Source: Psammoneis japonica
Taxonomy: Eukaryota
Assembly: GCA_008632985.1 (NCBI GenBank)
Contig: QPGO01000077.1
Span: 357,694-377,693 of the forward strand
DNA length: 20,000 nucleotides
Direction: 5' to 3'
Of this stretch, positions 209-17,608 are shown in pieces. Within the stretch, counting starts at the first letter, position 1, and each line of letters begins with the position of its first letter. A program made the translations under genes and the position numbers. The notes below the pieces were generated by a model. It worked only from the letters and a program-made list of their open reading frames with translations, did not search any database and had not been told where the DNA came from.

Positions 209-756
209 ATGGACAATCTCGCACCAGCGCAACTCGACCCGAGCGAAATCCCGGAAGGATTTACCGCGGCTTCAGCGGGAGGCGATAATGAAAAGCAGGC
301 CGAGACACAGAGCCGTGAAGCACAAAAGCAAGCCATCTTGGAACAAGCTCTTACACCGGAGGCTCTTGAAAGGCTAAGACGAATCAAGGTGAGTCTGGTG
401 GCTATTGCAAAACAAGTATCTGTGTCGCATCGCGTGTTGTGTATGTAATGTGATGCTTGTCAGCATATTCAATATTTTTGTAAGTCACCTCACGAAGCGA
501 CGTATTGTTTGTGATTTCCCTCTTGTCTTTTGCTAAGCTCGTGAAAGTCGACAAAGCAAACAAAATCGAATCCATGATTGTAGCAATGGCCATGCAGGGA
601 AAGCTACCAGGGAGAATCAACGAGGGAAAATTAATTGAAATGTTGGAGGGATTGGGAGCCCAGCAGGGTGCAACTGGTGAAAACAAAATATCGATTCAAC
701 GAAAGAAATACGCATTCGATTCCGACGACGATGATGATGACGACGATTTGCTGTAA
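209..756 (+). CDS. PDCD5: Programmed cell death protein 5 (PDCD5/TFAR19 family), 2 exons
   Basis: Exons 209-388 and 538-756; intron 389-537 (GTGAGT...TAAG, phase 0). The spliced protein reads ...ILEQALTPEALERLRRIK|LVKVDKANKIESMIVAMAMQGKLPGRINEGKLIEMLE...KISIQRKK...DDDDD, matching the PDCD5 consensus with its acidic tail. Confidence 0.92.
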
Positions 757-976
757 GCTGCCGGAAACAACTCGCTTTCTGCAACCGCGCAGCGGAAGAA
801 TGAGGCTTTTGTCTAGCACGAGTGTGTTATCAAATATGCATTGGAAAAAGTATTCAAATTTTCGTTTGTTCCTTCATCTCTTTTTCTGCAATGATGGCAT
901 TAATATCTTAGCTTCTTTAGGTTGTTTTCGGGACGCACTCCGGCTTGCACTTTGTATGCCTGCTTGGTCATTACAG

Positions 977-1657
977 TTACACCGCTGCATTGGCGCTCAC
1001 CGGTTCGACGCGAAGTTGACCTACGGGAATTTCCTCGTAGATATCAACAGTTGCTCCGCCAAATGGATCTGCTTTGACAGTCTCCATTTCCCGTACATTC
1101 AGAGTTGCTCCCTTCAATGACACTTCTCCGCTGTCCTTGTCACGAACATGAGTTATTTGAGCGAACAGTTTAAGCGGCTTTACGGAATCGTTATCTTCCC
1201 CAGGAAGTGCAACACTGCCGGTTTCCAGCTGGAGTAGCATATATGGGTAGAGAGGTTCCTGGAATAGCCCCCAAATCCACAGCCCGTCCTTGCGGTCTTC
1301 TGGATCTTCTGACAGTTTCCAAAACCCGTTTGTGATTGTCAGCGTTTTTGAAGCGCCACTTTCGCCAGTTTGATCAGCAGCCACCTGACGCACATTGCCT
1401 TGTGGTGGTTCGTAACCTTCGTCTTCCAAAAACTGGGCTTCCACAACAAAGAGCTGGTCGACCTTTTTACCGAGTTCTGTTGGGATACCATTCAACGAAA
1501 AGGAGAGTTTCCAGGTAGTCTCGTCCGTCAGCGTAGCCTTGGCCGATAAAGGTGTTGTCGAGAAGGCTCTAGACTGCGTGGGAACTTGCGGAGTGGTAAA
1601 CCCATATACTGAGCTTGCTGTCGACAGCACCAACAGAATGACGAGAAACGATAGCAT
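977..1657 (-). CDS. Protein of unknown function, probably plastid-targeted (226 aa, bipartite presequence)
   Basis: ATG at 1657 opens a hydrophobic signal peptide (MLSFLVILLVLSTASSVYG), followed by F at +1 and a Ser/Thr-rich, acid-free transit-like stretch (FTTPQVPTQSRAFSTTPLSA), an ASAFAP-type arrangement. The body looks globular (FWKLSEDPEDRKDGLWIWGLFQEPLYP). The ORF extension to 1831 starts at a non-ATG codon and was not accepted. Confidence 0.75.
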   Translation of the reverse strand: MLSFLVILLVLSTASSVYGFTTPQVPTQSRAFSTTPLSAKATLTDETTWKLSFSLNGIPTELGKKVDQLFVVEAQFLEDEGYEPPQGNVRQVAADQTGESGASKTLTITNGFWKLSEDPEDRKDGLWIWGLFQEPLYPYMLLQLETGSVALPGEDNDSVKPLKLFAQITHVRDKDSGEVSLKGATLNVREMETVKADPFGGATVDIYEEIPVGQLRVEPVSANAAV

Positions 1658-2149
1658 TTGTCTAAAAAGTTCGAGATGCTTTTTCAGACCAGTTGAACAC
1701 CAAACAAAACACCGCGTTTCCAAAGCAACCGCTAACGTTTCTGCCAACAGCTGTCGCCGGTTTCCAGTGCTCGCCAATGAGATGTAGGAAATGAAAGTCC
1801 TTATTCTGTAGTTGAACGAATGCGGCAACATAAGAGGTGAGCTGACGAGCGAGCGCGAGTTCAGAGTGATGAAAAGTTGTGAGTCAGTCGCGGGAGAGAT
1901 GGATGAAGATAACCCGGAAGGTACGTTACTTTGTCCCCAAGTTGCGTAGAACTTGGTACGTTTCTACCTGGGTCGTGGGTTTTGGTCGCGTGAGTTCGAT
2001 GATGGCGGGGCGGGAGTGATGAGTGATGTTGATGTCAAAAAGCAAAACGCGAAGAGGCAGAACAACACACATGTCAAAACGTGAACATGACAAGGCAGAA
2101 TACTCAACTGCTGTCAGCGCTCACGAGTATGTAGGACTGTCAACTTTCT

Positions 2150-4522
2150 ATGATGAGCACGAATAATATTGAAAAACCAGGTGATCCTCGATTGGGCAGC
2201 TTGCTGCATGAGGGGCTGAACGGTGACATTGTTTTTGTACTCTGGCCGTGTGATGAGGTATGCTAGAACGTTGCTCCGTTTGATGCGACTTGGTCTACCG
2301 TGCATAGATCCTAATCATTCATTGTGAATTGCGATGTATTTTATTTACAGGGTGTCAAGCGAAACGGGGGACGACTTGGTGCGGCAGGAGCGCCTGCGAG
2401 GTTTCTACAGTTTCTTAAAAGCATGGGAACTATCCATAATCCGGAGTATGACATCGATTTGTCATCCATTGAATTGTCGTATTATTTTGTCAACCTAAAA
2501 GATCTGGATTTTGACAAGGACAAAGGTGCATTGGACAAAGCGCACGATCGTCTAACGGAGATAGTATCCAAAGTGCTCGATTCGGGAGGAGTTCCCTTTT
2601 GTATCGGTGGAGGCAACGACCAATCATTTGCAAACTGGAGAGCTTGAGGCAGTCAGTGGCAAAAGGCTCCCGAATAGGAGTTGTGAACGTCGACGCTCAC
2701 TTGGATGTTCGGCCACTTGCCAATGGACAGCCTCATTCGGGTACGCCGTTTCGGCAAATTCTGGACTACGACGCCGCAGCCAGAGACGGGACAACAGTCT
2801 TGTGTGAATTCGCAGCTCAAGGCAGTCAGTGTAGCAAGGCCATGCGAACTATGTAACTTGCAGGGGAGGCTCGATAATGTGGTTGAGTCAAGTACGAACC
2901 GTCGCCATGTCCCACTTTAAAGATGTTTTGGCACGCCATCATGCCTCTGGCATAGACCATGAGTTCGTGTCATTCGACTTGGACGCGATCAAAGCTTCTG
3001 ACTGCCCCGGTGTCTCGTGCCCATCCAACACCGGTCTCACGGCAGAGGACGCAATAGGAATCATGAGAATGGCGGGGGAGGCAAGGCATGTAAAACTTGT
3101 GGACATGTCGGAAATGAATCCAAAGATTGAGGACTACATTACCCCTCGCCTTGCCGTGCAAATGGCGTATTCTTTTATTCTTGGCTACACGAAGCGCGAC
3201 CGCGAATCAGTTCCTTTGAAAGACCGACACTTGAGCATTCCGCATCGTCGGGCTTTTCGCCTTCGTATTTCCCACCTGAGTCAGTTAGTTTGCGTCGAAG
3301 ATGTTCAGAAACAGGGTTTCCGAACGGGCGAGCATATGAGGATACTCAACATTGTCGAGGATGGCACGATTCTTGTGGATCGGAATGGCCGCATTGCTTA
3401 TGCTGGTCCAGCCGAGGATGCTCCTGATGTTGACAAGGACGAAGTCGAACAGGAAATTGATGGAGAAGGCAAATCAGCCATACCTGGACTCTGTGATGGA
3501 CATACACATTCCTGTTGGGCTGGTGATAGAGTGAATGAATTTTCGATGAAGCTAGCGGGCGCCACTTACATGGATATTCACAAGAAAGGCGGGGGCATAG
3601 GCTTCACTGTCAAACACACCCAACAAACTGACGAAGCGAGCTTGTACACAAGTCTGATAGAGCGACTAGATGACATGAATAAGACTGGTACGACACTTGT
3701 GGAATGCAAAGCGGTTACGGGCTCGATGTTACGACTGAGCTAAAAATGCTGCGAGTAATTGATAAGGCTCATCACAATCTGGGGCACGTAGACGTTGTTG
3801 GGAATTTCTGTGGTGCGCACTCGATTCTACAAGGAATGACGGAGGAAGAAGCCTTGGATTGCGTAATAAACAAAATGATCCCGGCTTTGACTGAGGAGAA
3901 GAAACATGGTAGAATGGCCTCGACAAGGCTAATTGACGTGTTTGCAGAAGATGGGGTATTTAGCAACTCGTCGACAAAAGCTATTCTCGAAGCTGGAGCA
4001 CGAATTGGATTGCTCGGCAATTTTCACGGTGATGAACTCACGTATCAAGCATGCGGCGAACTGGCTGGAAAATTGAGGTGCCGCGCAGTGAGCCACCTAG
4101 AGCATGTCAGCGATGAAGGAATTTCAGCAATGGCAGAAAGCCATACGGCAGCTATACTTCTACCCACTACGGCCTATGTGCTAAGGATGAAGCCACCCCC
4201 TGCCCGTAAACTTATCGACAACGGGGTTCCCGTTGCTCTCGGCTCAGACTTCAATCCAAACGCCCACTGCTCATCCATGGCTCACGTGATGAATCTTGCA
4301 TGCGTCACGATGCATTTGTGTGTTGAAGAAGCCCTTGTTGCCAGCACGCTTAACGCAGCATACTCAATGGGCATGCAAGAGAGTCACGGCAGTTTGGAAG
4401 TCGGCAAGCACGGCGACATTGTACTTGTAAATGCTCGACGATGGGAGCACATCATTTATCAATTCGGTGGCATCCCGCCTTTGTTCGCCGTGATCAAAGA
4501 CGGAATCGTAAGACGTTTGTAA
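2150..4522 (+). CDS. hutG-hutI: Bifunctional formimidoylglutamase (HutG, arginase family) - imidazolonepropionase (HutI, amidohydrolase) fusion, ~760 aa after correcting three 1-bp frameshifts
   Basis: Exon 1 2150(or 2153)-2257 (GDPRLG...WPCDE), intron 2258-2350 (GTATGC...TTACAG), exon 2 2351-4522. HutG motifs: [52 protein letters not shown]. The same open frame (2877-3743) continues into HutI motifs PGLCDGHTH and [18 protein letters not shown]; after the third frameshift come ECKSGYGL, CGAH, FHGDEL, SHLE and ALGSDFNP. Frameshifts at ~2644, ~2840 and ~3710 could be assembly errors or pseudogenisation. Confidence 0.9.
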
Positions 4523-4561
4523 ATCCGTGTTATGCTGAGAGTTCTAGTTTACTTTGTGAGA

Positions 4562-7500
4562 TTAAAGGTGCTTCATTGGCATGTTAATGCTGTGCTTTCT
4601 CGCCGTTTCTTCTGCTTCTTCGTACCCAGCATCGACGTGGCGCATGACACCGGTAGCAGGGTCGCCTTGCAAGACTCGTCTCAAGCGCAACTCTGCTTCT
4701 TGTGTCCCATCAGCGACAATAACTTGTCCAGCATGAATAGATTTGCCAATGCCGACCCCACCTCCATGATGTATTGAAACCCAAGTTGCACCATTCACCG
4801 AATTTATCATGGCATTGAGCAGCGGCCAGTCAGCAATAGCGTCGGAACCGTCCTTCATACTTTCAGTTTCTCTGTTTGGCGAAGCGACAGAGCCGCAATC
4901 AAGGTGATCTCTCCCTATCACGATCGGTGCTGAGATTTTACCTTGGGCTACAAGTTGGTTGATGCGTACTCCAAACGCTTCTCGTTCGCCCATACCAAGC
5001 CAACAGATTCGACAAGGAAGCCCTTGGAATTGAACTTTTTCTTGAGCTTGATCAATCCAACGTCGAAGAGGTTCGTCATTAGGAAATAGCTCCTTCACAG
5101 CCTCGTCAGTCACCGCAATATCCCTTGGATCTCCTGATAAAGCAACCCACCGAAAGGGCCCACGACCACGACAGAACTGAGGACGAATGAAGAGGGGTAC
5201 AAATCCTTGAAACGAGAAAGCTTTTTCATAGCCACCTGCTTTCGCCTGACCACGAATATTGTTTCCATAGTCAAATACTACGGATCCCTTTTCTTTGAAG
5301 CCGACCATTGATCTAACTTGCTCCACCATTGACATGATCGACCGCTTTTTGTAGTCCTCGGGGTCGGACTTTCGAAGTCGAAGTGCCTCTGGGTAGCGCA
5401 TTCCATTTGGCACGTATCCGTTTAGTTCGTCGTGGGCAGAGGTTTGATCAGTCTAAACAGTTGCCACACGAGGACAGAGTTGAGGGCAATCGTTCCGCAG
5501 TAATGCATGAGAATCCTCAAAGGATGGGACTTACCACCACGTCGGGGATGATACCTCTTGCAAGTAGCGCGGGGAACACGTCTGCGGCGTTGGCGACAAC
5601 CCCGACAGACAAAGGAGTGTTGTTTGCCACTGCCTCTTGACACCACGAAATTGCTTCGTCTAGAGTCTCAGTGAGGCGATCCAAATACCGCGTCCTGATT
5701 CTGCGCTGGGCTCGATCCTTGTCTACTTCGACGCAGAGAGCCACGCCGCCGTTCATAGTGATAGCAAGTGGCTGAGCACCTATGGAATGAATGAATACGA
5801 AAATGTTGAGATCTGCCCGTGAAGAAAAAATGACGACACACAAAACAATTTGTAAGTTAGTCTACGAACCTCCCATTCCCCCGAGCCCTCCTGTGAGTAC
5901 CAGCCTACCAGCGAGAGTTCCATCGTAATGCTGCCTGGCTAATTCTGCAAGAGTCTCAAAGGTCCCCTGAAGAATTCCTTGGCTTCCGATATAAATCCAT
6001 GAACCAGCAGTCATTTGGCCATACATGATTAACCCTTTCGCTTCGAGTTCGCGGAAGTAATCCCAGGTCGCCCACGATGGGACAAGGTTGGAGTTTGCTA
6101 TTAGGACTCGTGGAGCATCACGGTGGCTTCGAACGACACCCACCGGCTTTCCAGACTGTACCAATAAAGTTTCATCATCCTCGAGCTCCGTTAGCACCTT
6201 TAGGATCGCGGTCAACGCTTCGTGGTTCCGTGCAGCCTTGCCGGTGCCTCCATACACAACAAGGTGGTCAGGGTCCTCTGCCACATCTGGGTCCAGGTTG
6301 TTCAAAAGCATGCGATACGCAGCCTCTTGTTGCCATCCTTTGCAGTGCATTGTCTTTTTGGGAGCCACCGTCCCGCCATTTATCTCGCTCTGACTTGCGG
6401 CATTAAGAGCGCATTGTACCGTCTTGGAGAGAATCCCGCTTCGCACTAGACGAGCCGCGGCCGCCATGTGCGGTGCCATCTCCACATCTTCTGGAAGAAA
6501 CGGAATGTTTGAGCGAACGAGATCATGTGCTGCGGATGTACCTCTCCCCATTTTGGCGTTACTACCAAGCTCTCGACGCCGATACTCGACACCTTGTGCT
6601 GCAGCCAACAATTCGATTCCCAGAATATTCTCAAGGTTTCGGAGGATACGTCTAGCTTGTCGAACCGAGATGGGACCATTGGACACGTGATCTTCCACGT
6701 TTGCTGAAGTGGGGAGGCTGTCGGCACTAGCAGGGAAACAAAGTGCCTTGTTTTCACTGGCCAGCGCTGCCGAAGTGTACTGTGTAAGCATAAACCCCGA
6801 ATTCAAGCCACCCTTTTCTGTCAGAAATGGAGGTAGAATACCATTATTGCTCGCCGGATCGGTAAGGCGATTCAGTCTCCGTTCCGAGATGTTTCCTATT
6901 TCAGTCATTGCGAGCGAGAGATCATCAAAGGTGAGTGCTAGGGGTTCCCCATGAAAGTTCCCACCGCTCTTGGCAACAGCGGATCCATCGTCTTGGAAAA
7001 AGATGAGCGGGTTGTCCGTAACACTGTTCAATTCAATGCTCAAAATCCGTCTCGCATTTTGAAAGGCGTCAGCACAAGCTCCGTGCACCTGCGGCATGCA
7101 TCGAAGCGAGTACGCGTCCTGAGGATCTTCTCCGAGATCGGAACGAACAAACGTGGATCCTTCCAATAGCGCTCGCAGCTCCCTTGCCGTTTCAATCTGA
7201 CTCGGGTGCGGACGAACCTTTTGAATGTCGGGATCAAGGGCTGCCGCGGTTCCGTATAACGCCTCCAACGACAACGCACCGGTAATGTTGGCCACGTGCG
7301 CACAATTCTCGGCTTCCACAATCGCTAAGCACCCCAACGCTGCCATCATGGCTGTACCGTTTGTCAATGCCAAACCTTCTTTTGCTTCCAACTCAACTGG
7401 TTTTAATTCTACTTTTGCCAATGCCTCGGCGCCAGCAAGGACTTTTCCGTCAACCACAGCTTTTCCTTCACCAATCATGACCAGCGACATGTGAGCCAAC

Positions 7501-7955
7501 GGAGCAAGGTCGCCACTCGCACCCAATGATCCTTGTCGGGGCACAATGGGATGAACCCTCCGTTCAATCATGTTTAGCAATAGTTCAAGAGTTGTCAGTC
7601 GTATACCAGAATACCCCGAAGCCAACGTGTTTGCCCGAATGAGCATCATGGCACGAACGGCGTCGGCTTCGAGAGGCTTGCCAACTCCGGCAGCATGAGA
7701 TCGAACAATGTTGCGTTGCAATTCTTTCAAATCAGCCTTTTCGATCAAGGTCTTTCGGAATGCTCCAAATCCTGTAGTGACACCATAGACCGTCTTGTTT
7801 TCGTTTACCATTTCTTGTACGGCCTCTGCACTCTTGTTGACCGCCTCAATCGCATCTCTTGACAGTCGCAACTTTACCGTCTCTTGTTCTGCTTTTGCAA
7901 TCGCCACCACATTTTCAATTGTCAGTTGATGTCCATCAATTGTTAGTTCCAACAT
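4562..7955 (-). CDS. hutH-hutU: Bifunctional histidine ammonia-lyase (HutH) - urocanate hydratase (HutU) fusion, 1073 aa, 3 exons
   Basis: Exons 7955-5870, 5779-5535 and 5452-4562; introns 5869-5780 (GTTCGT...CATAG) and 5534-5453 (GTAAGT...TTTAG). Splicing restores GGMG|GAQPLA and [12 protein letters not shown]. HutH motifs: VYGVTTGFG, the HAL-type RSHAAGVG, the MIO-forming [11 protein letters not shown] (7512-7520), [19 protein letters not shown]. After a short linker (~6351-6410) HutU begins: [77 protein letters not shown]. Confidence 0.96.
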
Positions 7956-8360
7956 TTTCTATTGTTTGATTGGAAGAAATGGGACTTGATGTGATGATGG
8001 CGGTGTCAGAATTTTTTGTCATTTTGGATTTTGCGACCCCAAAAAAAAATGAGAAGCGAATGCTCACGGATGACGGGCAGAACAGAGAGTTTCGGTGGTG
8101 TTCCCAAATTGTTTCCACGTTTGAGATTCCGGATTCCGATGAAAAGCTGAGGCAATGACGTGTTGAGTACTACAAAAAACGTATGATCTACATACGAGTT
8201 TCGCTGGTACTGATACCACGTAGCATCCGCCCACTTTTGGCCTCTTTCCAGCGCCTTCGACAAAGACAGAGCGTTTCACGGCCGTGCCGTTCTTGTGTTT
8301 TGTTTGGGCAATTGTTTTGATTTGTGAGCGAGCCAACGACGCCCGAGATTGACATCCATC

Positions 8361-11503: not shown

Positions 11504-12185
11504 AAGAGACAGTGGACGACTCTCACCGACCACGATACAAGTAAAGTAGACTTATGGTATTTTGATCCTTTTGCTTGCACGAATTGTGATCAGTATAGAA
11601 TATCTAGCTGTGCAACACTAAAATTGACTATCAAAGTTCTTCATTCGAATACACAGCACCTCCCCCGTTCGTTCCCTCTGGAGGATGGCTTATGAGCAGT
11701 TCATCATACGTCCCTTGTCGTGCATCTTCCGTCTCTTCAATCGTTACATGATCTGGCTCGTGCCCGTTCAAGTACCTGCTCCAAACAAGCTCGAGTCCAG
11801 TCTGAAAGTTCTTGACATATCGCGGAACGTCCCAATAGGGGTGCAAGAGACAGTGGACGACTCTCACCGACCACGATACAAGTAAAGTAGACTTATGGTA
11901 TTTTGATCCTTTTGCTTGCACGAATTGTGATCAGTATAGAATATCTAGCTGTGCAACACTAAAATTGACTATCAAAGTTCTTCATTCGAATACACAGCAC
12001 CTCCCCCGTTCGTTCCCTCTGGAGGATGGCTTATGAGCAGTTCATCATACGTCCCTTGTCGTGCATCTTCCGTCTCTTCAATCGTTACATGATCTGGCTC
12101 GTGCCCGTTCAAGTACCTGCTCCAAACAAGCTCGAGTCCAGTCTGAAAGTTCTTGACATATCGCGGAACGTCCCAATAGGGGTGC
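11504..12185. repeat. Direct tandem duplication, 2 x 341 bp (11504-11844 and 11845-12185)
   Basis: The sequence starting AAGAGACAGTGGACGAC and ending CCAATAGGGGTGC occurs twice head-to-tail and looks identical by eye. The ORF track shows the same ...YSNEEL terminus at 11631 and 11972 (offset 341). Confidence 0.97.
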
Positions 12186-14458
12186 ATGGGGTTTCGCTGT
12201 AGACACGAGTCGATGAGTTTCTTTCGGATTGACTCGAGCATGGTTGCATTCTTCCCGAGAGCAATGGCAATGTCTTCGTATTGTTGTGGTCCATTGTACG
12301 CATTCAATTCTTCAAGTCCCAAAACCATGTTGGACGACGTTGTGACACGAGAGCACATGTCATCACCGTCACTACGAGTCACAATGGGCACACCGGCATA
12401 CAAGGAATCTTGAGCGACAGTGTGGCCATTGTATGGGTACGAGTCGAGCATGACATTGCAAAAGTCGTGATTCCTCATTTGATGGTCAAATGGGTTTCGT
12501 TGCCACGGGAGAAAATGTATGCGAGAATTCAATTCGTTTCCGTCTCCTTCCACAAAGCTGTCTTCATCGTTATTGTTTTCGGACGTACCCGCAGCCTCGT
12601 GAATAAATTTGCGGAGATATGGTACGCCCTCTTTGGGATTTTCCAAGAGACAAATCATGCTGTCGGGAACTTCTCTCAGGATTCGAATCCAACTCCGGAC
12701 AGTTTCAGGATTATTCTTGAGGAACTTGTTGAAATTGCAGTAGACAATGGATGGCTTCTCGGGACCCACCCCTGGCTTTGCCATGCATCGATTCGCTTGT
12801 GGACTGCCAGTCCCCAACTTGTACGGAGTCTCTGCTGGGGTATAGTCAAAAGTCGGTGCTTTCACCTCGTCCTGAATAGCGTGGCCTTTTGAAAAAAAGT
12901 GATTCGGCATGTAGATAAACTTCTCCGTGTACAAGTTCTCTAGTTCTGGAGGAGACGCAATCTTGTCTGTAAAAATGTAATCCAGATACTGAGCACCATA
13001 AGTGCCGAGAAACTCTTGGTGCAAGATTTGTATAGGCGCCGGTCGCAGAGCAAACAGTCCCTGCGCTCGCTCACCCTGACGAGCATAGCCATCCCATTCA
13101 ATCAAAATGTGGATCCCAGTATCGTGGATCCTTCGTGCCAAGGCCACATGATCAAGCTTGAGTTTTTGCACATCGTGAAAGTAGTCCACGTTGGACTTGA
13201 CTCGCTCTCTCCAATCCACTCCCCGCATTCCGTGTTGAATAAACACGGGCGAATCGGCTGGACCCATGGAGAAAATATGAACCTCATACTTGTTCTTGTC
13301 AAAAAATCGAAACATGTCGTGCGACAAGTACAAGACCGCCTTGGAATTAAAGCCGGATGCGACAAAACCAATCTTGAGCTTAAAGTCGGGCTTTTGCGCC
13401 TCACGAAAGAATCGTTTGAAATCCGCGTCATTGTCATTGCCGTAGGGAAGTCCAGGTGGCAGGGGCTTTAATTTCATGGTTTCCTGATCGATTCTGGCCA
13501 GCTTTTCATCCAGATACGCCGTACCCTCGGTTACGTAACGTTTCAGAATGGATTCAATCGGATAGCCCAGCATCATGTGTGGGTGAGTCGAGGTGCCCCG
13601 TTCCCAATGAAAGGTGCCTAATTTTTTGTTCACTGTTCGATACTCGGCTACTTCCTCTTTGGCAATTCGTACAATACGCTCCATGTCTTGATCAAACTGT
13701 GTCCCGTTGAAACCCCAATCAATAATCATGGTTCGGCAATAGACAGCATTCGAACACGAGGGATAGAGTTTTTGGCCCGATTTGAGACAACTCAATTCAA
13801 ACACATCAGCACAATCTTCGTATTTGCGGTCACTGAAAAATTTGCTTCCCAAGGCGTACAATTCTTCCGGCGTCATGTTTTCAATTTCGCGACTGGCGGA
13901 CGGCTTGTTTTTTGATGAGGTTGTTGTGGTTGTTTGACTCGGAGACGCATCTTTCTTTGTAAGTTCGTCAAGACCAAGTGTCTGTTGGAGCAGCAGTGCG
14001 TCTGGATGATTCGGATCGACAGCCAGAGCTTGTTTCAGATACATTTTACCCATATCCATTTGACCTCTCCCGACACTCTCGGTTGCAACATAGACAAAGG
14101 CATCCGCCATTTTATCCTGAACAGCAAAACACTGAACAAAGGGTTGAAAGGCTTGCTCCACACTGTATGCATTTCCAGATGACGCATGCATCAGAACGGC
14201 ACGCCAATAGTGCATGGCAGCTCTGTCATACTCTTTTAATCCAAAGAGTCGCTGACCCTCTGCGAGATTGGCCTTGCCATCGGTGTTTGGCACGGTCGTT
14301 TCAAAATTCAATTCCACGACGGAATTGACAGAAGCAAAGATCGAGACACATAGCATAAGAAATATTATTAGTTTTGAATGCAGCCGCCTCTGTGGTTGTC
14401 GGCTCAAGCAAAGCGACGCCATGTCGGAAAGCGGCAAAGGAGACATCCGTCTCATCAT
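11972..14458 (-). CDS. TPR-containing glycosyltransferase family 41 (OGT/SEC/SPY-like) protein with N-terminal signal peptide/anchor
   Basis: Single 828-aa ORF. TPR-like helices (ANLAEGQRLFGLKEYDRAAMHYWRA; YLKQALAVDPNHPDA). GT41 motifs: HPHM, LKIGFVASGF, IHDTGIHILIEWDGY, LFALRPAPIQI, LDYIFTD, YTEKFIYMP, YCNFNKFLK, DSYPYNGHT...DSLYAGVPIVT, SRVTTS. The exact start Met (1, 2, 5 or 13) is uncertain. Confidence 0.88.
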   Translation of the reverse strand: MMRRMSPLPLSDMASLCLSRQPQRRLHSKLIIFLMLCVSIFASVNSVVELNFETTVPNTDGKANLAEGQRLFGLKEYDRAAMHYWRAVLMHASSGNAYSVEQAFQPFVQCFAVQDKMADAFVYVATESVGRGQMDMGKMYLKQALAVDPNHPDALLLQQTLGLDELTKKDASPSQTTTTTSSKNKPSASREIENMTPEELYALGSKFFSDRKYEDCADVFELSCLKSGQKLYPSCSNAVYCRTMIIDWGFNGTQFDQDMERIVRIAKEEVAEYRTVNKKLGTFHWERGTSTHPHMMLGYPIESILKRYVTEGTAYLDEKLARIDQETMKLKPLPPGLPYGNDNDADFKRFFREAQKPDFKLKIGFVASGFNSKAVLYLSHDMFRFFDKNKYEVHIFSMGPADSPVFIQHGMRGVDWRERVKSNVDYFHDVQKLKLDHVALARRIHDTGIHILIEWDGYARQGERAQGLFALRPAPIQILHQEFLGTYGAQYLDYIFTDKIASPPELENLYTEKFIYMPNHFFSKGHAIQDEVKAPTFDYTPAETPYKLGTGSPQANRCMAKPGVGPEKPSIVYCNFNKFLKNNPETVRSWIRILREVPDSMICLLENPKEGVPYLRKFIHEAAGTSENNNDEDSFVEGDGNELNSRIHFLPWQRNPFDHQMRNHDFCNVMLDSYPYNGHTVAQDSLYAGVPIVTRSDGDDMCSRVTTSSNMVLGLEELNAYNGPQQYEDIAIALGKNATMLESIRKKLIDSCLQRNPMHPYWDVPRYVKNFQTGLELVWSRYLNGHEPDHVTIEETEDARQGTYDELLISHPPEGTNGGGAVYSNEEL

Positions 14459-14708
14459 TGTTTGCGAAATTTTTGATGGATGTCTACTCGTCTCAAAATG
14501 TCTCGCGCGATCATTTGCATTGCGCGCTCATCGAAGCAGTCTGTCTGCTTGCCAGCCGTCTATCTCTCACCGCAACCATCGATGCGTCAACCAATGGCTG
14601 TTTGGCGGTTGTGCTTTTTGCTCACTTTCTCCGGCTCGCTCCTCGTTTTGCAGCAATCGTTGCATCGACAAGCAGCTTAGACCTTAAACGTCGTAAATCA
14701 ACATCACG

Positions 14709-16798: not shown

Positions 16799-17299
16799 TT
16801 ATTCCCTGCTCCAGTTGTCTTTGCTTGGATTGCCGTGGCCACACGTCTCTGCAACAATCAGATCGCCAACTGATGCAGTTTGGCCCTGCCACACAAGGCA
16901 CATGTCGGTGTCAATCACCCTAATGACGATACCATCGTACTCGAGCTTCTGGAGAGGATTGGATGAGTCGCACTCCTGGAGACGGACCGTCTTTCCCTCT
17001 TCTAGAGGCCATGAAAGACCGGCCTGGATGCAGTAATCGTCGTCGAGTTCACTCTCAAACAGGCCATTACTACGCATCCGGAACCCGGTACATCCTGTTC
17101 CCAGGGCGAGCTTGGGTCTGCAGTTGCACACCGATGCCTGAACGCCGAGGCAGAGACCATCGGCATCATCGTTTCCGAAGTGTGTGTAGGAAGAACCTAA
17201 TTTCCGTAAACCACCATGCGTGTCGTCGAGCACTTTCCATCCACCTTGGACAAGAGGAATGGCGACAAGCGAGAATAACGCATGCACGGAGAGCTTCAT
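16799..17299 (-). CDS. Small secreted Cys-containing protein, ricin-B (beta-trefoil) lectin-like, 166 aa
   Basis: ATG at 17299; signal peptide MKLSVHALFSLVAIPLVQG; LRKL motif; three subdomains with the ricin-B-like pattern C-hydrophobic...C (GLCLGV..GTGC; DYCIQA..VRLQECDSSNPLQKL; DMCLVW..IVAETC..DNW). Confidence 0.7.
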   Translation of the reverse strand: MKLSVHALFSLVAIPLVQGGWKVLDDTHGGLRKLGSSYTHFGNDDADGLCLGVQASVCNCRPKLALGTGCTGFRMRSNGLFESELDDDYCIQAGLSWPLEEGKTVRLQECDSSNPLQKLEYDGIVIRVIDTDMCLVWQGQTASVGDLIVAETCGHGNPSKDNWSRE

Positions 17300-17608
17300 C
17301 GTTGTTACAGTGAAAAGATGTTGTTTGTCGATTGATTGAGATGCTTCAATATATGAGTTGGAAAAATGACATTCATTTTTTTGGAAGCCCATCACTGCAA
17401 GTCTCCGCTCTGCTCGCAGAAAGAGACATTCTTACATATGACACGATTGATTTGTTATGCGAGCCTTTCCAAGGCAATATAATCGGGGGCCCTTGCGATT
17501 CGGGGTCGCGCTTTCGGTCGGATGCGTCTATTGAGAACATCAATCGTGTCGCTTGAAAGGTCCTTCTCCGCGATGCTGAATCGTGAAAGAAAGTTCTTAC
17601 GATTGGAT

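Follow-up and report, generated by a model that had tools for sequence, protein, structure and literature searches.

The 20,000-nucleotide (nt) stretch of Psammoneis japonica DNA analysed here (GenBank assembly GCA_008632985.1, contig QPGO01000077.1, positions 357,694 to 377,693 of the forward strand; hereafter the window, numbered from its first base) carries on its minus strand a gene in which histidine ammonia-lyase (HutH) and urocanate hydratase (HutU) are joined in frame. The explanation that we favour, with a probability of roughly 0.8, is that HutH-HutU is a genuine, spliced, diatom-type nuclear gene with two halves of bacterial ancestry, predicted to yield one bifunctional polypeptide of 1073 amino acids (aa). 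The gene forms half of a two-gene, four-enzyme cluster; neither its strand nor the cluster figured in the original prediction, which was made from the sequence alone. The parts of the gene are as follows, with X2 denoting one of two sets of contigs from public sequencing runs that are described below.

4562..7955, minus strand: entire HutH-HutU gene of three exons, 1073 aa, with stop codon TAA at 4564..4562 (reading frames, Pfam domains and X2 contigs over every exon)
5870..7955, minus strand: exon 1, with the ATG at 7955; HutH, the linker and the first ~160 aa of HutU
6408..7955, minus strand: HutH (histidine ammonia-lyase) domain, aa 1-516 (TIGR01225 aligned to aa 5-516)
7520..7512, minus strand: Ala-Ser-Gly codons for the precursor of the 4-methylideneimidazole-5-one (MIO) group (GASGD motif read from the sequence)
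6357..6407, minus strand: junction or linker, aa 517-533, variable among orthologues (alignment of 12 fused rows)
4565..6356, minus strand: HutU (urocanate hydratase) domain, aa 534-1073, split by two introns (TIGR01228 and Pfam)
5780..5869, minus strand: intron 1, 90 nt, GT..AG, phase 1, within the GGMGG motif (exact joint in an X2 contig)
5535..5779, minus strand: exon 2, 245 nt, middle of the urocanase Rossmann domain (PF01175 positions 41-121; X2 contig 5535-5781)
5453..5534, minus strand: intron 2, 82 nt, GTAAGT..AG, phase 0, between PDVV and TDQTSAHD (homology and breaks in X2 contigs)
4562..5452, minus strand: exon 3, end of the Rossmann domain, Urocanase_C and the stop codon (frame, Pfam and NCBIfam)

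A 698-aa stop-to-stop frame at 5862..7958 on the minus strand holds HutH, the linker and the start of HutU, in agreement with the claim that no stop codon separates the lyase from the urocanase, and the coordinates originally flagged, 5870-7955, are exactly those of exon 1, whose last base is 5870. Both introns lie in the HutU half, as had been proposed (5869..5780 and 5534..5453 in the gene model). The linker quoted at that time and the CKGWQQEA start of HutU are present, but its length, given as ~20 aa, has to be shortened to a spacer of about 17 aa, from the NCBIfam edges at aa 516 and 534. Splicing gives a coding sequence of 3222 nt that is translated into 1073 aa with one stop, at its end, and removal of the introns re-creates conserved HutU motifs, including GGMGG/AQPLA across intron 1. 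The polypeptide has an estimated mass of ~117 kDa. The G+C content at third codon positions is 0.48, with values of 0.49-0.59 for the neighbouring genes. The three introns of the cluster (two in HutH-HutU, one in the partner gene HutG-HutI) have no other match in the window, and introner-like repeats were not found there.

The identity of both halves was established with domain profiles. Pfam assigns aa 11-481 of the 698-aa frame to Lyase_aromatic (E 4.5e-189; positions 1-465 of the 466 of PF00221) and aa 532-654 to Urocanase_N (E 1.2e-57), with the first 39 profile positions of the urocanase Rossmann domain at aa 657-695. The remaining urocanase lies in two further minus-strand frames, 5517..5861 (Rossmann positions 41-121) and 4562..5452 (Rossmann positions 122-207 and Urocanase_C), such that the profiles of the three urocanase domains (PF17391, PF01175 and PF17392) are jointly covered over the three exons. 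The NCBIfam hutH model TIGR01225 scores 639.8 bits (cut-off 539.15), and models for the Tyr/Phe enzymes all remain under their own cut-offs. For hutU (TIGR01228; cut-off 375), exon 3 alone reaches 471.7 bits, and the part in exon 1 scores 287.7 bits over model positions 9-170, the match starting at aa 534; thiourocanate hydratase models, which have cut-offs of 880-930, give 345-375 bits on exon 3. In an alignment of 32 HutH rows (A1), GASGD at aa 145-149 is invariant, as are Y57, H87, N199, Q279, Y282, R285, F334 and E421, which we take to have the catalytic roles of their counterparts in the Pseudomonas putida enzyme. On exon 3, urocanase chains of 551-563 aa in the PDB score 385-425 bits, compared with 130 bits for 6uek, a 681-aa urocanate hydratase chain of the long type, unlike that of the diatom, and presumably from Trypanosoma cruzi. 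By this measure the HutU half is of the short (~550-aa) bacterial type and not of the ~680-aa type, as originally proposed.

HutH and HutU are textbook enzymes. The first half is predicted to be an MIO-dependent histidine ammonia-lyase that converts L-histidine to urocanate and ammonia, and the second an NAD-dependent urocanate hydratase that converts urocanate to 4-imidazolone-5-propionate. In a 12-row alignment of fused proteins, each row with an N-terminus begins with Met at the bacterial HutH start, and because no N-terminal targeting extension is seen the protein is probably cytosolic. Look-ups in the ESM Atlas returned generic lyase and amidohydrolase clusters only.

The fusion is not a chance event, because 12 of the 120 homologues listed carry both domains, at 69-79% identity. 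The labelled diatoms among them are Amphora coffeaeformis (1114 aa) and Gedaniella sp. (1077 aa, with a label of the MMETSP transcriptome project), and NCBI is among the sources of none of the 12 rows. The frame is kept across the junction in every row; the sequence there is variable and covers about 20-25 aa, Amphora having 13 additional residues. No full-length HutH-HutU fusion occurs among the best 150 representatives of the 50% library. At the site of intron 1, the relative P0009 has a 33-aa insert of the kind expected from read-through and P0005 ends, so that this intron would be common to the relatives; intron positions in relatives are read here from protein models, there being no diatom contigs among the metagenome matches listed. 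Two further rows, P0368 (334 aa) and P0445 (497 aa), contain pieces of both domains with ~85 aa missing or ~120 aa unmatched, and were set aside as irregular.

Three public runs are available, from one sample and one study and all labelled 'DNA?', two of which (X1 and X2) were compared with positions 2100-8100. X1 is genomic in its behaviour, with a single 8384-base contig over 2100-7940 in which the introns are retained. X2 resembles complementary DNA (cDNA): one contig contains a joint, 5777>5868, which removes exactly the 90 bases of intron 1 (CT..AC on the plus strand), a second contig keeps intron 1, and contigs end precisely at the two edges of intron 2 (5453 and 5535). We read X2 as cDNA because contigs of DNA would not skip introns. 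A 2073-base X2 contig spans 5868-7940 with the whole linker and without any joint; the linker is thus kept in the transcript and not spliced out. HutH-HutU is therefore transcribed and spliced, and its transcription runs across the junction. At 6533-6534, X2 alone has AA in place of CG, giving one synonymous change and one that replaces Ala by Ser, in the C-terminal part of HutH that is variable; this difference is probably allelic.

Bacterial homologues are collinear over both intron sites, and the data support a gain of the spliceosomal introns after transfer, in the diatom lineage. Intron gain had been part of the first proposal, and it agrees with the skipping of intron 1 in the cDNA-like contigs and with the marks at the same site in two relatives.

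The nearest unfused HutH proteins are 60-71% identical to the diatom domain, and those with names come from metagenome-assembled genomes of Chloroflexi, Caldilineales or Anaerolineae. In a FastTree analysis of 274 rows, nine diatom HutH rows (support 100) lie within a 49-row clade (support 100), and a quick IQ-TREE analysis of 74 rows gives the same nesting. A careful IQ-TREE analysis of 65 rows places the diatom clade (100/99) as sister to the P0020/P0024 group (96/84), within successive clades of 20 rows (99/97), 26 rows (100/100) and 38 rows (100/99). P0024 itself and relatives 73-85% identical to it are held by genomes of the Anaerolineae (the class of G001), and 19 of 401 sampled genomes give a match at E<=1e-225. 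The histidine ammonia-lyase (HAL) of a caecilian (P0346) is 47% identical and far from the diatoms in the tree, and a topology in which the diatoms are forced together with animal HAL is rejected by the approximately unbiased (AU) test (log-likelihood difference 163.9, p 0.00012). The phylogeny thus shows the HutH half to come from within the Anaerolineae (Chloroflexota), and the bacterial, not vertical, origin originally supposed for it is upheld by this nesting and by the AU test.

A different affinity was obtained for the HutU half. Its nearest unfused relatives are 67-73% identical (58% for one row), the named ones belonging to KSB1, GN15, Bacteroidota or Acidobacteriota. In the HutU trees, which are unrooted and have the diatoms as their only eukaryotic rows (no long-type HutU among them), the seven diatom rows group together with support 100/100, and their nearest neighbours are placed with weak support. 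A careful tree of 78 rows is split 42 to 36 with support 99/96, and the diatoms lie outside all 36 Chloroflexota-type rows. These 36 comprise 23 HutU from the phylum of G001 (every one of them) and 13 unlabelled metagenome contigs that group with those, and the 42-row side comprises the diatoms, 30 other database hits and five loci (three titled Bacteroidota, Gemmatimonadota or Bdellovibrionota). In the ten genomes with the strongest P0024 matches hutU is always on another contig than hutH (10/10), with 58-66% identity on exon 3, and the HutU proteins of these sister-HutH genomes make up a separate clade. A topology that joins the diatom HutU to that group, which was fixed beforehand from the HutH tree and represented by nine of the ten genomes (the G724 fragment was left out), is rejected by the AU test (log-likelihood difference 117, p 0.0029). 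Nesting in the inner Chloroflexota-type clade, a group chosen after the tree had been seen, is likewise rejected (p 2e-9). Three genomes flagged as unpublished (G150, G349 and G178) contribute only to a 226/401-genome tally.

These placements show a HutU half that is bacterial and from outside the sampled Chloroflexota HutU, and the safe statement is that the two halves have no common closest bacterial lineage among those sampled. The proposal that adjacent operon genes were acquired from one donor does not hold as it was worded, in view of the 99/96 split, the AU result (p 0.0029) and the location of hutU elsewhere in all ten genomes.

Several points weigh against this account. The diatom side of the HutU tree is poorly resolved (supports 90/47, 82/59 and 60/60), and in a smaller set of 56 rows a sister relationship of diatom HutU to a 14-row Chloroflexota-type clade is not rejected (p 0.77). 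Samples of Bdellovibrionota and Anaerolineae are equally close to the diatom on exon 3, both with a best identity of 69% (matches in 31 of 301 genomes at E<=1e-134 and in 77 of 401 at E<=1e-129, respectively). The sampled genomes are incomplete and metagenome-assembled, and 'another contig' is a weaker statement than 'not adjacent'. With regard to expression, no run is recorded as RNA, the reading of X2 as cDNA being drawn from the behaviour of its contigs; X2 may derive from the sample of the assembly itself, so that it would not be independent of the DNA, and no contig with the intron 2 junction is among the X2 contigs listed. Intactness of the polypeptide at the protein level is a prediction from the sequence. 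For the partner gene, hutG is the best model for the first domain of the orthologue P0121 at 153.4 bits, under its cut-off of 229.15.

How the two halves came together can be considered in the light of bacterial gene order. Among 94 prokaryotic or metagenome loci listed, hutU follows hutH directly on the same strand in ten, and in none are the two in a single open frame. The same direct order is found in the genomes G324, G445 and G448. In L008, from a Bacillota genome, hutH and hutU share one frame and are parted by a single stop codon with an ATG at once after it. Two Chloroflexota genomes, G448 (locus L127) and G445 (L128), have hutH, a TGA, 21 or 18 nt and then the ATG of hutU, again in one frame (2 of 37 genomes in the order of G343), and the whole 1073-aa diatom protein aligns to this hutH-TGA-hutU frame at 61% identity. 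The N-terminus of bacterial HutU reads MSRTIRAPRGTQLTCKNW, and the diatom linkers end in strings like APRGT.L..CKGW. Judged by this likeness, the linker is a HutH tail followed by the old HutU N-terminus, and it therefore fits the loss of a stop codon. In a separate observation, the metagenome contig L041 has at 655-3279 on the plus strand a stop-to-stop frame of 875 aa that contains HutH (residues 367-870) and overlaps a HutI-like frame.

Because the anatomy of the junction resembles the bacterial arrangement of hutH, stop, spacer and hutU, we favour, at odds that we place a little short of even, an unsampled donor with a mosaic operon, from which hutH and hutU were transferred when they were already adjacent. 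In such a donor an Anaerolineae-type hutH would have stood beside a diatom-like hutU, and the two would have moved as a pair. Loss of the stop codon at the boundary of hutH, short spacer and hutU could then have created the in-frame fusion, and gain of spliceosomal introns in the diatom lineage and a drift of composition toward the host would have come later.

A substantial competitor, to which we assign a somewhat lower probability, is that an Anaerolineae-like hutH and a hutU of another bacterium arrived by two independent transfers and were joined in frame in an ancestor of the diatoms. The unlike affinities of the two halves are what this would predict, and the partner gene too appears to be of other origin. 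In five hutH-bearing Chloroflexota genomes (among them G001 and G343, which have the HutH closest to the diatom in the phylum sample) HutI shares 37-41% identity with the partner and the arginase-like match is <=28% identical to the HutG-like domain, so that by identity HutG-HutI does not look like a co-traveller of HutH-HutU. The HutG-like domain scores 245 bits with the PDB chain 4mxr, compared with 56-64 bits for other formimidoylglutamase chains. However, a tail-to-head junction of bacterial length that includes the HutU N-terminus is the product expected of intergenic read-through, and bringing separately landed genes into exactly this arrangement requires more steps.

An unlikely alternative to transfer from a mosaic operon is that a single ordinary donor supplied an adjacent pair, which moved together and fused, and that the split positions in the trees are an artefact of rate or composition in the diatom HutU. 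Direct same-strand hutH-hutU order is common (the ten listed loci and the three genomes named above), L008, L127 and L128 provide in-frame pairs parted by one stop, the diatom linkers keep the old HutU N-terminus, and the 56-row test (p 0.77) accepts diatom HutU as sister to a Chloroflexota-type clade. Each of these would suit one donor, but the same donor would have to account for the 99/96 separation from all 36 Chloroflexota-type rows, for rejection of a clade with the HutU of the sister-HutH genomes (AU p 0.0029) and of inner Chloroflexota-type nesting (AU p 2e-9, post hoc group), and for the presence of hutU on another contig in ten of ten sister-HutH genomes.

It is more doubtful still that the fusion is genetic only, with linker cleavage or internal initiation giving separate HutH and HutU and no bifunctional enzyme. 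The linker is variable and probably flexible, and an in-frame Met ahead of the HutU domain (..KKTMHCKGW) could suit internal initiation, but this Met lacks conservation in the other 11 fused rows, the junction frame is open in 12 of 12, and one contig crosses the junction. An artefact, be it contaminating bacterial DNA, chimeric assembly or the misreading of eukaryotic genes of vertical descent, is very improbable. Errors do occur in the assembly (three deletions of 1 nt and a single substitution in 6 kb), but the introns are spliced, the genes nearby are eukaryotic (an intron-split SNF2 helicase, a Sof1 WD40 protein and a GT41 glycosyltransferase), the 8384-base X1 contig and the X2 contigs are concordant over the junction, labelled diatoms have the same HutH-HutU architecture, and vertical inheritance is opposed by the AU rejection of a grouping with animal HAL and by the 130 bits of the long urocanase type.

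The other gene of the cluster is convergent with HutH-HutU and has the following features.

2150..4522, plus strand: fusion of a HutG-like protein (arginase-family formiminoglutamase) and HutI (imidazolonepropionase), 760 aa after correction of three assembly deletions
2150..2257, plus strand: HutG-HutI exon 1
2258..2350, plus strand: HutG-HutI intron, 93 nt, GT..AG (the X2 joint 2255>2349 removes 93 bases)
2351..4522, plus strand: HutG-HutI exon 2
2642..3707, plus strand: span with three 1-nt homopolymer deletions (2642, 2839 and 3707), the frame being broken in the window assembly only
4523..4561, no strand: interval of 39 nt between the convergent stop codons (a 3314-base X2 contig runs from HutG-HutI into HutH-HutU exon 3)

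Matches to the arginase family and to the amidohydrolases both fall inside a single frame at 2835..3743 on the plus strand, and the order of the domains is the reverse of the order in the pathway. X1 and X2 both have an additional base after 2642 (C), 2839 (C) and 3707 (A), which restores an intact frame of 760 aa that is 69% identical to P0121 over its full length. A pseudogene was considered for HutG-HutI and rejected, the three frameshifts being homopolymer under-calls that are mended by both read-derived contig sets. Other genes in the Psammoneis japonica assembly may look broken through homopolymer deletions of this kind and be taken for pseudogenes falsely. Within HutH-HutU, both contig sets have C>G at 4580, which turns a Met close to the HutU C-terminus into Ile, the residue present in those fused orthologue rows that extend to this position. 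With 39 nt between the stop codons, the transcripts of the two convergent genes must overlap at their 3' ends.

The hutI model TIGR01224 scores 409.7 bits on P0121 (cut-off 298.15) and 272.9 and 120.5 bits on the pieces in the window, and the PDB chain 2bb0 scores 245 bits with the HutI domain. The HutG-like domain reaches 245 bits with two PDB chains named 'Formiminoglutamase', 4mxr and 2a0m, which we take to be from Trypanosoma cruzi, and the two other formimidoylglutamase chains give 56-64 bits. Twelve fused HutG-HutI orthologues of 753-832 aa have both Pfam domains at 51-67% identity. The Amphora HutG-HutI gene is numbered next to the Amphora HutH-HutU gene, and matching lengths of the longest contig (6155, 153558, 7350, 6372 and 8348) suggest that several HutG-HutI rows adjoin HutH-HutU. 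The two convergent genes would together encode the complete four-step route that turns histidine into glutamate, ammonia and formamide, with HutG-HutI providing steps 4 and 3. The 1564-aa eukprot protein P0133 combines PDZ domains with an amidohydrolase region that resembles imidazolonepropionase (60% identity over 30% of the query).

Elsewhere in the window, all on the minus strand, are a 328-aa open frame without a Pfam match (977-1963), an 851-aa frame resembling O-GlcNAc transferases of glycosyltransferase family 41 (GT41; 11972-14527) and a ricin-B lectin frame (16799-17431).

HutH-HutU offers a clean and testable case of transferred bacterial genes turning eukaryotic, through stop-codon loss, intron gain, drift of composition and clustering. 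From the cluster one would predict that histidine can supply nitrogen to some benthic or pennate diatoms. With HAL tetrameric and urocanase dimeric, HutH-HutU is a natural tetramer-dimer fusion with which to ask whether such an architecture channels an intermediate. A HutH tetramer could be combined with two HutU dimers in a closed particle, in which case the symmetries would not necessarily be mismatched, as they had at first been thought to be; any kinetic benefit of the fusion is likewise a supposition. At its most elaborate, the cluster would be a 'super-operon' of pennate diatoms, with two convergent fusions drawn from at least three sources (Anaerolineae HutH, non-Chloroflexota HutU, and a 4mxr-like formiminoglutamase with HutI), a closed or filament-like particle that channels urocanate, and histidine serving as a nitrogen source. 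We regard this full combination as improbable.

The HutH-HutU fusion, its pairing with a second fusion (four steps in two genes) and its mixed bacterial ancestry appear to be undescribed, and our searches of the full-text literature yielded neither a HutH-HutU fusion nor a description of this histidine pathway in diatoms. Stramenopile genomes contain many fusions of domains for successive metabolic steps, some of them bacterial in ancestry (Morris et al. 2009, PMC2705460), and the main text of that paper has no urocanase, histidine ammonia-lyase, imidazolonepropionase or formimino terms. Eukaryotic HAL has been placed among bacteria at an unsupported position, in a paper that mentions neither diatoms nor Chloroflexi (PMC9002059).

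Three known systems provide comparisons. Trypanosoma cruzi has a four-enzyme hydrolytic route for histidine (HAL, urocanate hydratase, imidazolonepropionase and formiminoglutamase) that ends in formamide and glutamate (PMC12203737). It is a eukaryote with the type of route that is predicted for the diatom from its genes, but its four enzymes have EC numbers of their own in that paper and, as we read it, are separate proteins, whereas the diatom has two fusions. Animal HAL and UROC1 catalyse the same two reactions as HutH-HutU, and HAL is homologous to the diatom HutH (47% identity for P0346), but they are separate genes, and the diatom HutH is distant from animal HAL in the tree. Animal urocanase is of the longer type, and the last step in animals uses a folate-dependent transferase. 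The bacterial hutH/hutU pairs of G445 and G448 are like the diatom gene in their enzymes, in the order of H then U, in the short HutU of 545 positions and in the tail-to-head spacing, although the HutU of the diatom is not of their Chloroflexota type. In these pairs stop and start codons part two proteins, whereas the diatom gene has no stop between its halves and carries two spliceosomal introns.

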